From: Promethearchaeota archaeon
GTDB taxonomy: Archaea > Asgardarchaeota > Lokiarchaeia > Sigyniarchaeales > SOKP01
Assembly (NCBI GenBank): GCA_048940925.1
Contig: JBHLOC010000001.1
Location: forward strand, 160,001 to 224,000
Reading direction: 5' to 3'
Length of the DNA stretch: 64,000 nt
This document shows, one piece after another, positions 21,948 through 61,186 of this stretch. Below the pieces are notes generated by a model. It saw only the letters and a program-made list of their open reading frames with translations, made no database searches and had not been told where the DNA came from. The position numbers were made by a program, and so were the translations under genes. The first letter of the stretch is position 1, and each line of letters begins with the position of its first letter.

Positions 21948-23613
21948 TCAATGATTTAGAGTTTTAGAGACATATACACCATCTATTTTATATCCCATTT
22001 CATAGAACCAATCTCTTGCTCCAATACCACTTATTACTACTAGTTTTTTTGCTCCAAATTCTTCAAATGAGGTTTTTTCAGCATTTTCCATTAATAATTT
22101 TCCATATCCTCTATGTTGTATTTGAATAAGTCGCTTGGGTTTCAAGTCTTTTGGAACCATTTCTCCAACTACCTTGATTTCCCTTACGATTAATGTTTTT
22201 CCATCATTTATTTCAGGTCTGTGGGCAAATTCAGAAGGCTTTCTTAAGCGTAAATATCCAATTAAATAATTTTCGATTTTATTCTCATAGGATAAGAATA
22301 TTTCTTTTCCCTGAGAAGCATCATAATCAAAACGATATAGTTTTATTTTATCAAAGGATTTCTCATCAATAAGTTCCTCTTTCTTACTAATCCCATATTC
22401 TCTACATCTAATACATTTGCAAGTTTCATCCCAACTTTTTAGTCTCTCTTGGACTAACTGTCTTAAATTGCTATTTTTACAACCTGCTTTGATTAATGTC
22501 GCAGGTATATCTCTCATTATTCTTTGAATTCTCACATAGGATGGAAGGTTTTTTTTAGCCATTGCAATTAATTCAATTAAGTCTTCATCCGAGTATGGTA
22601 AGTAATTTCCATTTTTCCACCAATTATGCAATTCAGTACCATCTATCACGAGAGTAGGATAAATTTTTAACATATCAGGTCGATAATCTGGATTAGAAAA
22701 TAAGCTATCAAATAATTTTAAATCTTTTTGAATAGTTGAACCGGGTAAATTTGGCATTACATGTGCATTGATTTTTAATCCTGCATCTTTAGCAATCCTT
22801 ATCGATTCAATGCTATCAGCAGTTGTATGCCCTCTTTTCACTAGATCATAGATTTCATTATAGACTGTTTGAATACCAATTTCGACTCGCGTTGTTCCAA
22901 AATTTAACATATTATCTACATGTGTCTCTTTACAATAATCTGGTCTTGTCTCAACGGTAATACCTATAACCCTTCTTTTAGATTTTTCTGCTAATAGCTT
23001 AGCTTCTTCCAAACTGCCTGTTTTTTGTTTTATTATTCCCTCTAATGCCCCTTTAACGAAATGTGTTTGATAATCTGGATCAGTTGATAAGAAAGTCCCA
23101 CCCATTATAATAAGTTCAATCTTTTATGGTGGCAAACAATTAAGCGTATACCATGTCCACTTTATGCCCAATGGCTTCTAAATCTTTTATTCGAGATTGA
23201 ACTTGCTTATAAGGATCATAATTGTTATGGATTGATCTCATCGCCGCTGGTTCTCTTCCTGTATATGATTGGGCAACTTTTTCCCCTGGTTGGGAGTTTA
23301 CTCCAGGACAGTATATACATGTTCCGGGACAAGGAAGAGGTTTAGTCATAATTGCTATTACTGAAACTCCTGAAATTGTTCTTGTTGTTCTTCTCTTCAA
23401 AAATTTATTGATAATCTCTTTTTCTTCATTTGTTGCATGGTGTATAATACTGGCATTTTTTATAACTCGATTATAATTATACTTTTTTCCAATTTGTCCT
23501 TTAAGGTTTGTTATTTTTCTGCGAGAAGTTTTAGGATTTTCTAAAAGATACTCAATTATTTCTCTTGCTATTTTCTTTACTATACTTGAGTTTATATTAT
23601 CTGATTGTTCCAT
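21948..23613 (-). CDS. elp3: tRNA uridine(34) acetyltransferase Elp3, split by a 31-nt intron; join(23155-23613, 21948-23123), 544 aa
   Basis: Exon 1 carries CPGTCIYCPG and SYTGREPA; exon 2 carries MGGTF, ETRPD, KIYPTLV and QHRGYG; removing 23124-23154 restores IGHKVD-KIELIIMGGTF. Confidence 0.9.
23124..23154 (-). other. BHB-type (tRNA-endonuclease) intron in elp3
   Basis: Central helix GUGG/CCAU, bulges ACA and AAA, intron stem UGGUA/UGCCA; outer exon helix weak. Confidence 0.82.
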
Positions 23614-23699
23614 TCTTAAATTAATTAATTTGATAGAAAGATTTAAATCTTCATGAAAATTATACTTTTCGATTTATCTTTTAATACAAATCTCAAGCA

Positions 23700-24173
23700 A
23701 TATGATTTCTATTTCAAAATAAAGGAAGAAAAAATAAGATACACTAAAAGATGGTTTCTATATCAGAAAAAGTACAAGTCAAAAAATTTATCTCCTTAAC
23801 ATCTATTATCAAATTTATCAAGCTTTTCAAAATATTCTAAACTCTAATCTAAACCTTTCATTTGCAATAAATTCTTTAAAGATGTATAATTGTTAATCCC
23901 AAATTTTCCTACAATTCTTTTTATTTTTATAATTAAACCTTGTTTATGCCATACTTGATATTTTTGATGCAAATCTGACCCAAATTCTGAATTAAGGATA
24001 TCAATAAAAAACTCCCGAATAGAAGGATCTCTAAATGTGCTTTATCCCTCAGGTTTATCTAAATATTTGAAGATTTCGTTAACATCTCTATCTATAAGAA
24101 AATATTATGCTAACTTGTAGGTAGTTATCTCAAAATATCCTAAAGTTTCTGAAATTAGTCTATTAAGTGTCAT
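23700..24173 (-). pseudogene. Possible degraded ORF of unknown function
   Basis: Frame from ATG 24173 reads protein-like (MTLNRLISETLGYFE...FRDPSIREFFIDILNSEFGSDLHQKYQVWH) but has several stops; 3' boundary approximate. Confidence 0.3.
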
Positions 24174-24395
24174 ATGAGTTTTGATATCATACTTTTTAAA
24201 AAATTTTTGTAAGAAATTTTTTTGTTCTCTTGTATTTTGTTCAAATCATTAAGAATTGTAGATTCTAAATATTAGATTTAAATTTAAAGTTTCGAAAAAA
24301 TATTTTTTTGAAATTGTTTCATAAATATTTAAATATGGAATGTTACATATAGATTATAGTATGAAAAAATTTAACTTTAAGGTGATATATACAAA

Positions 24396-25922
24396 TTGTC
24401 GGGAGGTTTGAAAAACATTATCGCTACAGTTACAACTACAATTGAAGAAAAAGTTAATTTCAGTCAATTGGCAAGTAAATATTCCGAACTATTATATAAT
24501 CCCGAGAAGTTTCCTGGATTGATCATGCAGATAGAAAAACCGAAAGCAACGGTTGTGTTATTTTCCACTGGAAAAATGGTTATAACAGGACTTCAGCAAA
24601 CCTCAGATGTTGAAAAAGTAATGGAAAAAGTAATTGAGTTTTTTAGAGCTGAGGGAATAGAATTAAAAAATCTGGAAATTTCAATGGAAAGAGTAAAGCC
24701 AAAAAGAATAAAAATATGCCTATTAGGGGAAAAAGGTGTTGGAAAATCTACTTTAATGGACACAGTATTAAAATCTTCAGAGAAAGTTACAACTAAAAAA
24801 CAAAAAGATATTATCGGAGTAGATTTTTTTAATGTAAAAGTTAGAGATATTGATGGTAAGGACGTTATTCTACAATTATGGAATATAATTGACGAAGAAC
24901 GTTTTAAACAAATTCAGCAAAATTATTATGTGGGCGCTGATGGAGGGATTATATTCTATGATATCACAAATAAATCCAGTTTTGAAAATCTTGATAATTA
25001 TGTTTCAGCATTTAGAAAATCAAAAAGAAATCGAAACATCCCTATTATTTTGGTTGGAAATAAATTCGATCTTCGAGAAAATAGAGAAGTCTCGCAAACT
25101 GAAGCTTCCAAGGTAGTGGTTACTCGTAAAATGGTAGGTTATCTTGAATTTTCTGCGCTAGATAGTCAAAATGTAATTAAATTATTTGAATCAATTTGCC
25201 GAATTATAATACGGAAAAAAAACTTAATCTCTATTTCTGAAGCTTTGGAAAATGATCTTAATTTAAGAATTTTGATGAATTTACAAATATTTAAAGAATT
25301 AAGTTTGGTAGAGATCTCGAAAAGAGTTGTTAAAAGTAAAGCCACTATTTCTCGTCATACTCGAAATTTAATTAAGCTAGGTCTAATTGAATCTCATGTT
25401 AAAGAGATAGAACCGCAAACAGGTACGATTAAGCGAAAATATTATACATTAAGTAAAGATTTGAGCTATCATATAGAAAAAAGAGATTTTAATTTTTCTC
25501 AATTGAAATCAAGAATAAAATGGAAGATATTTTCAGAGTTTTATCTAAAAAAACTATATAATTTCAAAACAGTTAATCTCTTATCAAAAAGATTAAATAA
25601 TATGCTAGAAGATTTTAATAATCATATTTTTGGTGGTTTTCCGGCACTCATAAAGCAATATGGAAAATATATTGAAAATTTACCTATAAATTTTCAATTT
25701 TTAAATGAAAAGCAAAATCAAAAAGTTCAGTCTCTATTACTAAAATTTGATTCAAAATTAAGAGATATATTAGCAGATGATGATGGTTCAGAGAAGTCTT
25801 ATTTATTTTTGAATATGACGCTTCCAACAGTGGATTTAATAAATCTCTTTGAAAAACCTGAACTGTTTAACCATATAATTCTAAATCGAGAGATTAAAAA
25901 AGAGAAAAAAGGTTTTGAATAA
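24396..25922 (+). CDS. Fusion: TBP-like repeat + Rab/Ras-like small GTPase + winged-helix regulator
   Basis: YNPEKFPGLI...LFSTGKMVITG (TBP); GEKGVGKS, LVGNKFD, EFSA (GTPase); LVEISKRVVKSKATISRHTRNLIKLGLI (wHTH). Confidence 0.85.
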   Translation: MSGGLKNIIATVTTTIEEKVNFSQLASKYSELLYNPEKFPGLIMQIEKPKATVVLFSTGKMVITGLQQTSDVEKVMEKVIEFFRAEGIELKNLEISMERVKPKRIKICLLGEKGVGKSTLMDTVLKSSEKVTTKKQKDIIGVDFFNVKVRDIDGKDVILQLWNIIDEERFKQIQQNYYVGADGGIIFYDITNKSSFENLDNYVSAFRKSKRNRNIPIILVGNKFDLRENREVSQTEASKVVVTRKMVGYLEFSALDSQNVIKLFESICRIIIRKKNLISISEALENDLNLRILMNLQIFKELSLVEISKRVVKSKATISRHTRNLIKLGLIESHVKEIEPQTGTIKRKYYTLSKDLSYHIEKRDFNFSQLKSRIKWKIFSEFYLKKLYNFKTVNLLSKRLNNMLEDFNNHIFGGFPALIKQYGKYIENLPINFQFLNEKQNQKVQSLLLKFDSKLRDILADDDGSEKSYLFLNMTLPTVDLINLFEKPELFNHIILNREIKKEKKGFE

Positions 25923-45611: not shown

Positions 45612-45640
45612 ATTTACTCCTCTACTATTAAAAATATCTA

Positions 45641-46603
45641 CTAATTAATATTCCAATTTAATTCCGTTGATATTTTTTTTAATGCGCTAATTAAAGGTTT
45701 TATTAGCTTCTTGTCATAAATATTTGGAGAGGATATTCCTCTCTGAGTTTTCCACCCCATTTGGGTACCTTCTCCCATTTCTCTTTGTCCAAATTTTAAA
45801 ATATTGCTAAGATCTCTTACCCACCAGTAAAATCTTAACCATTTTCTGTTTGGATTATCTTTTGAATATATGACTACTAATGCTTTCCATTCACCCATCA
45901 ACCATTTCACTGTTATCCCGCTTATGGGAAGGTAAAAGTTTATTGGAAAATTTCCGTGAAACCGCAAATCGAGATCTGTTGGGGCAATGTTAAAAATCGG
46001 TTGATTATATCCTTCTAATATTACTATTTCTCCACAATGTTGACATTCATAATGTGATTTCATTTTGTCCATTTTATTTGCACATTTTGGGCACGTTCTG
46101 TTTTCAATAATCCTATACTTAATGATTTCTAAATTTTTTTCTTTTTCTAAATCTTCTTCTGATTTAGACCCCTGTTTTCCAAAGCTTCCACCCCAACTCC
46201 AAATATCATCAAATGATTCATCAAATTTTTCTAAAGCAATAATGGTATTATGAAGTACTTCTCTATCATAAATTTTAAACATCCCTGCATGTTGCAGATT
46301 TTTCCACCAAGATAATCTAACGTACTTTTCCTCTTTTAAATAGGCACTATGACAAATTAAAGCCGCAAATATTCGATTTTCGGTTTTAATTATAGTAATT
46401 CCTTTCTCACAAATTTCATATTGTTTATTTAAACTAGCATTTTTATGAAAATATTCACCATCCTGAAATTCACCTTTTTCGATCTTTGCTTTTTCCTCAG
46501 TAGATTCTTTATCTTTCTCTTTTACTATCTTTTTACATTGAGGACATTGAAAAATTCCAGCAACTAAAGGTTCCATCTCTATATTACATACAGGACATTT
46601 CAA
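45641..46603 (-). CDS. Internally duplicated Zn-ribbon + PC4-like domain protein
   Basis: Two CPxC..CxxC ribbons, each followed by a related module (YVRLSWW..IYD / WLRFYWW..IYD). Confidence 0.6.
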   Translation of the reverse strand: MKCPVCNIEMEPLVAGIFQCPQCKKIVKEKDKESTEEKAKIEKGEFQDGEYFHKNASLNKQYEICEKGITIIKTENRIFAALICHSAYLKEEKYVRLSWWKNLQHAGMFKIYDREVLHNTIIALEKFDESFDDIWSWGGSFGKQGSKSEEDLEKEKNLEIIKYRIIENRTCPKCANKMDKMKSHYECQHCGEIVILEGYNQPIFNIAPTDLDLRFHGNFPINFYLPISGITVKWLMGEWKALVVIYSKDNPNRKWLRFYWWVRDLSNILKFGQREMGEGTQMGWKTQRGISSPNIYDKKLIKPLISALKKISTELNWNIN

Positions 46604-59713: not shown

Positions 59714-61186
59714 ATGAATGTTATTAAAATTGATGAAAATATATACGAGATTCCCCCAAAAGCTTTGATGACACGGATTCACGGCAACATTGAAAAATTT
59801 CAAATGAGAGTACCAGTAAGGATTTATGCTAATGACTATATTTTAGAAAAAATTAAGTTAGATCGTACTCTTGATCAAATTTGTAATGTTGCTTGTTTAG
59901 AAGGAATAAAAAAACATGCTATTGCATTATCAGATGCACATCAAGGGTATGGTTTTTGTATTGGAGGTGTTTGTGGTACAGAGGCAGGATCTGGTATGAT
60001 ATCACCTGGAGGTGTAGGATATGATATTAATTGTGGAGTTCGCCTTTTACGTACTAGTTTAATGTTTAAAGATATTAAAAATAACCTTCCAACCTTGATT
60101 AATACGATTTTTAAGAATATCCCTTCAGGTTTAGGATCTAAAGGTAAATTAAATATAAGCTATTCAGATTTAGATAAAGTTTTAAACGCGGGAGTTAACT
60201 GGGCATTAGATAATGACTATGCAATCGAAGAAGATATTAAATTTTTAGAAGAAAATGGATGTTTGAAAGATGCAGATGCTAGTTTAGTCTCCCAAAAAGC
60301 AAAACAACGCGCTATTAAACAATTAGGTTCCTTAGGAAGTGGGAATCATTTCATTGAAATTCAAAAAGTAGATAAGATTTATAATAATAATGTTGCCAAA
60401 AAGCTAGGAATCCTTGAGAACAATCAGATAACATTAATGGTTCATACAGGGAGTAGAGCTCTAGGTCATCAAGTTTGTACTGATAGTTTACGGAATATTG
60501 AGCAAGCAATGAAAAAGTATAAGATTAAAGTTCCAGATAGAGAACTAGCTTGTGTTCCAGCAGATACACCTGAGGCTCAGAGCTATTTAAAACAAATGGC
60601 TTGTGCTGCCAATTTTGGTTTTACTAATCGTCAGTTGATAACTCATTGGATAAGAGAATCATTTCAACGAATATTTAGTAATGATATTGATGCTTTAGGA
60701 CTTCATTTAATATATGGTGTTTGCCATAATATTTTAAAAATAGAGGAACACGAAATTGATGGCCAAAAGATGAAATTAAACATTCATCGTAAGGGTGCAA
60801 CTAGAGCTTTTCCGCCAGGTCATCCAGTACTACCCCCAGATTATAAAGAGATTGGTCAACCTGCTCTGATTCCTGGAACAATGGGCTCAGCCTCTTATTT
60901 ATGTGTAGGAAAACCAAAAGCAATGGATTTATCCTTTGGATCTACTGCGCATGGATCTGGTCGTTTAATGTCTAGAACAAAAGCAACTAAAAGATATTGG
61001 GGAGCTAAAGTAAAGGAAGATTTAGGAAATAAAGGCATTTTAATTAAAAGCGCATCAATGAAAGTTTTGGCCGAAGAGAGTCCTGGAGCTTATAAAGATA
61101 TTGATCAGGTAGTTCAGGTTAGTCATGATCTTGGAATTGTTGAAAAAATAGTAAAATTAGTACCTATCGGAGTTGTGAAAGGATAG
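59714..61186 (+). CDS. rtcB: tRNA-splicing ligase RtcB
   Basis: DAHQGYG, GYDINCGVR, GSGNHF, HTGSR, HN, HRKGATR, STAHGSGR. Confidence 0.97.
   Translation: MNVIKIDENIYEIPPKALMTRIHGNIEKFQMRVPVRIYANDYILEKIKLDRTLDQICNVACLEGIKKHAIALSDAHQGYGFCIGGVCGTEAGSGMISPGGVGYDINCGVRLLRTSLMFKDIKNNLPTLINTIFKNIPSGLGSKGKLNISYSDLDKVLNAGVNWALDNDYAIEEDIKFLEENGCLKDADASLVSQKAKQRAIKQLGSLGSGNHFIEIQKVDKIYNNNVAKKLGILENNQITLMVHTGSRALGHQVCTDSLRNIEQAMKKYKIKVPDRELACVPADTPEAQSYLKQMACAANFGFTNRQLITHWIRESFQRIFSNDIDALGLHLIYGVCHNILKIEEHEIDGQKMKLNIHRKGATRAFPPGHPVLPPDYKEIGQPALIPGTMGSASYLCVGKPKAMDLSFGSTAHGSGRLMSRTKATKRYWGAKVKEDLGNKGILIKSASMKVLAEESPGAYKDIDQVVQVSHDLGIVEKIVKLVPIGVVKG

Follow-up and report, generated by a model that had tools for sequence, protein, structure and literature searches.

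The bulge-helix-bulge (BHB) intron in the pre-mRNA of cbf5, a pseudouridine synthase gene of Crenarchaeota, is said to have been described by Watanabe in 2002, and Marck and Grosjean reportedly set out in 2003 the hBHBh' and relaxed HBh' motifs of non-canonical archaeal tRNA introns. Mobile archaeal rRNA and tRNA introns, as well as group I introns, home with LAGLIDADG-type endonucleases. In agreement with an earlier note on the DNA treated here, which had named cbf5 as the known archaeal mRNA intron, the crenarchaeal gene is the sole case of BHB splicing within a coding sequence confirmed in the searchable literature (PMC2738675). According to the 2009 study of cbf5 by Yokobori, BHB substrates of this gene are cut between the second and third residues of the bulges (PMC2738675). 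A 2020 study likewise counts only one reported example of endonuclease-type splicing in a coding sequence, and the intron of the Haloferax volcanii HVO_1309 mRNA, also of BHB type, lies in the 5' untranslated region (PMC7714728). A 2026 preprint on Asgard tRNA introns (bioRxiv 10.64898/2026.10.13.758758) finds introns abundant in tRNA genes and does not treat mRNAs. Here we analyse elp3, the gene of a wobble-uridine modification enzyme, in a 64,000-nt stretch of the genome of a Loki-type Asgard archaeon of the Promethearchaeota (the window, G000:C40:160001-224000; the genome, G000, comprises 4.8 Mb in 90 contigs). The gene is interrupted by 31 nt at positions 23124-23154 on the minus strand, which very likely represent a genuine archaeal BHB (EndA-type) mRNA intron within the coding sequence, with a splicing step predicted from the DNA. 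Synthesis of Elp3 in this archaeon would then very probably need mRNA splicing.

The minus strand reads ...GGG CAT AAA GTG GAC, followed by the 31 nt (23154 down to 23124) and by AAG ATT GAA CTT ATT ATA ATG GGT GGG ACT TTC. The upstream open reading frame (ORF) runs from 23613 to 23140 and contains the ELP3_N domain; it is ended by a TAA within the insert, while the half of elp3 with Radical_SAM and Radical_SAM_C lies in a different frame, which is closed on its upstream side by a second TAA at the 3' end of the insert. Joining 23155 to 23123 yields an Elp3 of 153 + 391 = 544 aa with zero stops, as the earlier note had proposed from the two ORFs in different frames. Exon 1 (23155..23613, minus strand) comprises 153 codons; it contains ELP3_N (PF23613) and the first part of the radical-SAM domain, Cys cluster included, and ends in ...GHKVD. 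Exon 2 (21948..23123, minus strand) has 391 codons plus the stop, starts with KIELIIMGGTF and carries Radical_SAM, Radical_SAM_C and the GNAT part. The predicted spliced product GUGGAC-AAGAUU would read ...GHKVD-KIELIIMGGTF..., with a junction peptide that contains AIGHKVDKIELIIMGGTF.

Structural comparison places this junction to the residue. By Pfam and structure matches the Elp3 domain set (ELP3_N, Radical_SAM, Radical_SAM_C and the GNAT part) is complete and collinear with solved Elp3, and both exons match 6ia8, 6iad, 6qk7 and 5l7j end to end, exon 2 with E = 6e-115. In nine solved Elp3 chains the end of exon 1 and the start of exon 2 fall on consecutive residues, with no residue gained or lost (among them 133/134 in 6ia8_A, 107/108 in 6iaz, 98/99 in 6iad, 79/80 in 6ia6_A, 172/173 in yeast 6qk7_C, 163/164 in 8ptx_C and 76/77 in 5l7j_A). 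About 100 intronless related elp3 genes read through uninterrupted as ...GH.VDKIELI.MGGTF. The insert itself is present in the DNA: contigs from three independent public sediment runs, one of which may be the source sample, cross 23124-23154 free of gaps and differences, and an assembly artefact is excluded. A second elp3 copy was not found in the genome, the remaining matches being distant radical-SAM proteins (E ~1e-5), and a protein search returned no full-length Elp3 more than 85% alike this exon 2 and no RNA-derived spliced form. Among the public sequencing runs listed as containing this sequence, none is of RNA.

The insert is not private to this genome. As to its presence or absence in Asgard elp3 orthologs, a check that the earlier note had suggested, we found the same 31-nt insert at the identical site, and thus at the same codon, in 15 further Asgard genomes or contigs, so that 16 alleles share both length and position. 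At genus level a single one of 21 further genomes with a full elp3 match carries it (G024, whose allele is L006/L112); AMARA_1S (L115) and Meg22_1012_Bin_233 (L113) came from a broader scan of species-representative genomes, and a metagenome scan with a loose pattern added at least one more allele, L138. Among the 120 best relatives of exon 2 in the protein search, 14 are truncated forms of ~383 aa that start with MGGTF. Twelve of these were fetched: 10 have an ELP3_N ORF just upstream and the other two lie too near a contig end, and 11 contain the same 31-nt insert, while L239 ends before the site. About 85-90% of related elp3 genes are intronless.

The fold of the insert and its surroundings accounts for where the cuts would fall. 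In the minimum-free-energy (MFE) fold of 71 nt, GUGG at the end of exon 1 (23157..23160, in the Val-Asp codons) pairs with CCAU near the 3' end of the intron (23126..23129), then come the 3-nt bulge ACA (23154..23156), an inner helix UGGUA/UGCCA and the bulge AAA (23123..23125), all on the minus strand. This inner hairpin, h' (23130..23153, minus strand), pairs UGGUA (23153-23149) with UGCCA (23134-23130) and adds two further pairs past a U-U mismatch. Cutting after the second base of each bulge, between C23155 and A23154 and between A23124 and A23123, gives AC|A and AA|A and hence GTGGAC|AAGATT, the very junction demanded by the protein alignment, so that the frame-restoring junction follows from the motif alone. 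The earlier note had pointed to this core of GUGG/CCAU with ACA and AAA bulges and cuts after the second base, and the fold, the frame-restoring junction and the covariation among alleles (below) all bear it out. The core is the MFE fold in four of the five species folded, and a core of the same geometry (inner helix of at least 5 bp, insert length 31) occurs in 2.8e-4 of the registers in this genome. Taken alone, the 71-nt fold is not significantly more stable than its shuffles (z = -0.74); in a context of 116 nt the energy is -30.2 kcal/mol, with z = -3.35 and none of 200 shuffles folding as well.

The flanks of this core are less uniform. The inner hairpin of the intron is present and has compensatory changes, in line with the intron stem of the earlier note; the outer exon helix that the note had called weak is absent as an adjacent helix, and the 3' bulge is closed instead by an 11-bp long-range helix between the exons. 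In the best 116-nt fold of this genome its exon-1 strand AAGUUCAAUCU (23194..23204, minus strand), separated from GUGG by a 33-nt loop-out, pairs with the exon-2 strand AGAUUGAACUU (23112..23122, minus strand), which directly adjoins the 3' bulge (23204-23194 with 23122-23112). The long-range helix has 10-11 bp in G000, L112 and L138 among the alleles checked, and its 3'-exon strand is also found in most metagenomic alleles. Its disruption in L115 and L113 led to its rejection as a general requirement; it is an aid in some alleles rather than a conserved necessity.

Comparison of the 14 distinct intron-bearing sequences reveals which parts of the motif are held. No variation is seen in either strand of the central helix, in the AAA bulge, in GUGGAC or in the eight bases that end the intron, CACCAUAA, and the helix is paired in 14 of 14; the 5' bulge is ACA but ACU in two alleles, and the hairpin is variable. 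Across these sequences 94% of pair cells are paired, compared with 20-61% when the partner strand is slid. Compensatory (double) changes occur at five pairs in nine cells, that is, at five of the eight pairs of the inner hairpin, which 0-2 of 500 shuffles reach; the observed pairing or the covariation score is reached by none of 500. The Val-Asp codons are GTGGAC in all 16 intron-bearing alleles and once among the intronless alleles listed, where they otherwise vary freely (GTTGAT, GTAGAT, ATAGAC and others). These codon choices indicate that the RNA fold constrains the exon codons GTGGAC.

Several observations weigh against an intron of this type. The helix that would adjoin the 3' bulge is missing, so that the motif is a relaxed one (HBh'). 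In L115 and L113, where the long-range outer helix is broken, the AAA bulge opens into unpaired sequence. The inner helix has one or two mismatches in L112, L235 and L237. Finally, many of the intron copies are recently related, so that the covariation counts are not fully independent events.

The two halves of the gene evolve as one protein. The ratio dN/dS (nonsynonymous to synonymous substitution rates) is 0.07-0.23 in each exon in all intron-bearing pairs, which indicates purifying selection on both sides of the insert. Over the 18 nt that lead from the junction to the first ATG of exon 2, nearly all differences among alleles are synonymous and lie at third codon positions in the exon-2 frame (AAG/AAA, ATT/ATC, GAA/GAG, CTT/CTC/CTG and ATA/ATT, plus one Ile to Val). 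Since these 18 nt evolve as codons and a TAA closes the exon-2 frame just upstream of them, they would be translated as the continuation of exon 1.

This pattern bears directly on the other ways in which the broken frame could be read. If elp3 were truly split, two polypeptides, one of 157 aa and one of 385 aa from MGGTF, would be made without splicing and would together form an active enzyme; all intron-bearing records found are annotated by gene callers with two ORFs, and the ATG 18 nt past the junction could serve the second. The codon-like evolution of the 18 nt before that ATG, despite the preceding TAA, argues against two separate polypeptides, and the exon-1 frame continues after GHKVD with tails that vary among alleles both in length and in sequence (ORFs of 157 and 165 aa). 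The break would moreover fall within a beta-strand of the radical-SAM barrel, a strand unbroken in every solved Elp3 structure, and a split gene leaves unexplained both the conserved BHB with its compensatory changes and the frozen GTGGAC. We regard it as quite improbable. Translational recoding, in which the ribosome bypasses the 31 nt of unspliced mRNA or shifts frame over them, fares even worse. The hairpin and the stop soon after the break superficially resemble the bypassing in phage T4 gene 60. But only four codons of the insert can be read in the exon-1 frame before a stop, and the exon-2 frame opens later, behind the TAA at the last codon of the insert; this argues against frameshifting, as no single shift can join the frames; the codons for take-off and landing do not match (GAC before the insert, UAA before AAG), and the structure that is conserved is precisely a BHB with cut sites that fit the junction. 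Both the frameshift and the bypass readings were rejected by the layout of stop codons. Least credible of all is a decaying pseudogene or an assembly error. Although the frame is broken as read in DNA, three independent assemblies span the insert gap-free and sixteen alleles carry it; elp3 has no lesion besides the insert, dN/dS is ~0.1 on both sides, and no second copy turned up in the genome. Pseudogene-like decay of the exons, which the earlier note had given as grounds to abandon an intron, is thus not seen.

The genome encodes the enzymes that splicing of elp3 would call for. There are two EndA paralogues (PF01974), in the regions G000:C58:74241-74465 and C18:73532-73780. The first matches the catalytic subunit of the Aeropyrum pernix heterotetramer end to end (3p1z_B, E = 4e-33); the second, whose nearest match is the M. 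jannaschii enzyme, lacks Tyr and His at the positions aligned with conserved residues of the first. From these features we infer a pair of one catalytic and one structural subunit, the assembly of the two being a prediction. RtcB, the RNA ligase expected to join the exons (PF01139, 556 bits), is encoded at 59876..61183 on the plus strand (G000:C40:219876-221183). It lies in one window with the intron-bearing elp3, and the two positions are probably unrelated. ARAGORN finds introns in 22 of the 34 tRNA genes detected in this genome, which is a rough figure.

Cutting and joining, which we infer from the insert, its fold and covariation, the collinearity of the protein, the selection on both exons and the presence of the enzyme genes, would proceed as follows. 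In the pre-mRNA, GUGG at the end of exon 1 would pair with CCAU near the 3' end of the intron, so that the 3-nt bulges AC|A and AA|A flank the 4-bp helix; the intron hairpin would stabilize this arrangement, and in this species the 11-bp exon-exon helix would add to its stability. A heteromeric endonuclease built of the catalytic and structural EndA paralogues would cut after the second base of each bulge, and RtcB would join the exons to GUGGAC-AAGAUU, from which the complete 544-aa Elp3 could be translated.

The distribution of the intron does not follow the tree of the gene that carries it. On protein trees the intron-bearing alleles are scattered (six rows, representing five distinct alleles, need 5 changes, and 14 need 12), and several of them have very close intronless sisters. 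On a tree of the 228 nt around the site, with the four junction codons removed, the intron label needs only 2 changes, as low as in none of 500 shuffles; when the tree is built from the rest of exon 2 (1,041 nt), the number rises to 12, 10 of them imposed by branches with strong support. Individual pairs of alleles reveal the same. The intron-plus L051 and the intron-minus L039 differ by a dS (synonymous divergence) of 0.14 in exon 2 and 1.13 in exon 1. L138 tracks its intronless sister L020 except at ~45 informative sites in a run around the junction, which match G000. The flank in G000 is 96-100% identical to that of L230/L231, while its best backbone match is an intronless allele, at 83%. 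In this genome the approximate co-conversion tract, which includes the intron, spans 23063..23613 (minus strand), which takes in exon 1 entirely and roughly the first 20 codons of exon 2; it is 87-100% identical to other intron-bearing alleles, compared with ~65-85% in the rest of the gene. The tracts, which cover the intron in every case, range in length from ~40 codons to exon 1 in full, and elp3 is a mosaic gene among these alleles. The intron label that fits the flank tree and not the backbone tree, and the shared flanks on divergent backbones, are strong evidence that the intron-plus state spread recently between Lokiarchaeia lineages by recombination with co-conversion.

The alternative is a real intron that is ancestral and was lost many times, with shared flanks that reflect structural constraint and not lateral spread. 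Loss of such introns is easy and has been proposed for cbf5 (PMC2738675), and part of the flank (GUGG and the long-range helix) is indeed structurally constrained. Constraint on ~15 nt cannot yield the likeness seen, with flanks of 96-100% against backbones of at most 83%, at all codon positions and over 60-460 nt, nor does it explain the sharp mosaic breakpoints and a dS that flips between exon 1 and exon 2 from pair to pair (L051/L039, 1.13 vs 0.14). We hold repeated loss to be unlikely and prefer recent lateral spread, in which the intron would act as a mobile cassette that homologous recombination has copied, along with ~60-500 nt of the adjoining exons, among the elp3 alleles of different Lokiarchaeia lineages. 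The intron is often missing from the closest relatives and encodes no protein.

An insert of 31 nt leaves no room for an ORF, and no homing endonuclease gene stands beside elp3 in five intron-bearing loci, the neighbours being pyrD/pyrK-like genes, gatE and unrelated ORFs. The intron behaves like a homing intron, yet in the lack of an endonuclease gene it is not classed as one, and the agent of mobility may be ordinary homologous recombination. A bolder proposal, which we put forward as speculative and rather doubtful, is that of an actively selfish ORF-less element, one of a genome-wide population of mRNA introns, that itself drives its insertion into elp3 alleles without an intron in different Lokiarchaeia species. 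Self-promotion could run through a trans-acting endonuclease at the empty site or, at the RNA level, through a route such as reversal of the EndA and RtcB reactions followed by reverse transcription and recombination. If true, it would make the elp3 intron one member of an mRNA intron population in the closest archaeal relatives of eukaryotes. A sober reading is that of a tolerated selfish or neutral element whose removal would be obligatory for Elp3 synthesis. The earlier note had further suggested that the intron couples wobble-U modification to splicing capacity. This finds no support: most relatives are intronless, very close sister alleles differ, and the intron turns over fast and travels with recombination tracts; for a patchy intron that moves in this way, a selfish or neutral mobile element is a better fit than a conserved regulatory role.

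A contig from run X8 adds an observation from the sediments themselves. At window position 23162 its exon 1, a 97% match, gives way to a junction that lacks the intron, GTTGAT-AAAATTGAA, and to other codons downstream of it. A related lineage whose elp3 is intronless shares these sediments, and intron-plus and intron-minus alleles may meet there.

Similar mini-introns may not be confined to elp3. The top matches of a scan for a BHB that joins ORFs, taken together with Pfam support, suggest at least five other protein genes with such inserts in this genome. In three of them one Pfam profile, or models of the N- and C-domains, runs on across a BHB insert of 30-31 nt: an EF-2 family paralogue (G000:C32:27895-27924, minus strand; 30 nt, 9-bp hairpin, GTP_EFTU positions 3-35 / 49-187), methylmalonyl-CoA mutase (G000:C71:54629-54659, plus strand; 31 nt, Pfam 2-54 / 58-512, junction ...FSGHG/TPEETNKR...) and a thymidine/AMP-phosphorylase-like nucleoside phosphorylase gene (C64:13177-13206, minus strand; 30 nt). 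The other two are gyrB, with a 53-nt BHB-type insert (G000:C83:10714-10766, plus strand), and a GH38 alpha-mannosidase, with a 30-nt insert after a first exon of 44 codons (C43:76068-76097, minus strand); in both, exon 2 starts a few positions into the profile and the short exon 1 has no Pfam match of its own, while the junction peptides hold family motifs. In these two, as in the phosphorylase gene, the Pfam match of exon 2 begins at the expected end of exon 1. Under its loose criteria the genome-wide scan gives ~5,900 matches, about as many as its shifted controls, and ordinary gene boundaries dominate among them; the shifted control is also confounded with insert length modulo 3. Hence only the Pfam-continuous candidates are claimed and no genome-wide intron count is given. 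The scan candidates porA/porB at C40:156572 and at window positions 45625-45677 were rejected as plain gene boundaries.

Beyond the gene itself, a spacer of ~780 nt (23614-24395), AT-rich and with ORFs of only 42-48 aa, separates elp3 from a divergently transcribed gene of 508 aa (24396-25922). An Rfam search around elp3, spacer included, gave no match, and a scan for bacterial-type promoters and terminators, a type of scan ill-suited to archaea, gave no excess over shuffles. In the loci of L138 and L113, elp3 and gatE are separated by one or two additional genes of ~360 aa, with N-termini like MSxKKxxSNKKxxxQTISIxPALK, which those of G000, L112 and L115 are without. In another genome of the same order, an Elp3 relative occupies an open frame of 831 aa (G029:C186:54749-55915), compared with ~545 elsewhere, which could be a fusion, an intein or an in-frame insertion.

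With elp3, a mechanism of the cbf5 type is very probably needed for a wobble-uridine modification enzyme in an Asgard archaeon, and this suggests that, in the lineage closest to eukaryotes, the tRNA machinery routinely splices mRNAs as well. Current gene callers split such intron-bearing genes in two. The locus also offers a clean natural example of an ORF-less intron that appears to spread laterally with its exon flanks, which bears on how introns invade protein genes.

Comparison with the systems named at the outset places the elp3 intron between several of them. Its motif geometry and the presumed enzymes, EndA and RtcB, are those of non-canonical archaeal tRNA introns. Unlike in these, an mRNA hosts the intron, sense codons make up the exon half of the central helix and are hence frozen as GTGGAC, and no tRNA body aids recognition. 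With the HVO_1309 intron it shares an mRNA that is a substrate of the archaeal splicing endonuclease, as predicted for elp3; the HVO_1309 intron, unlike that of elp3, lies in an untranslated leader and interrupts no reading frame. Like mobile rRNA and tRNA introns and group I introns, the elp3 intron appears to invade intronless alleles, co-converts exon flanks and leaves mosaic genes; unlike them, it is without an ORF, and no endonuclease gene adjoins it in the five loci. The closest likeness is to cbf5, for which the study describes a relaxed BHB, cuts between the second and third bulge residues, a hetero-oligomeric endonuclease and a patchy distribution with gains and losses (PMC2738675). 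The two differ in the gene, in the phylum (Asgard/Promethearchaeota, from metagenome-assembled genomes of mesophilic sediments), in the intron length, fixed here at 31 nt, and in splicing that is predicted here from DNA. They differ also in that elp3 provides direct sequence evidence for lateral movement with co-converted flanks, of which the accessible part of the cbf5 study reports none (PMC2738675). What is new, as judged from the alleles compared, is that intron-bearing alleles scattered on the gene tree are clustered on the 228 nt around the intron.

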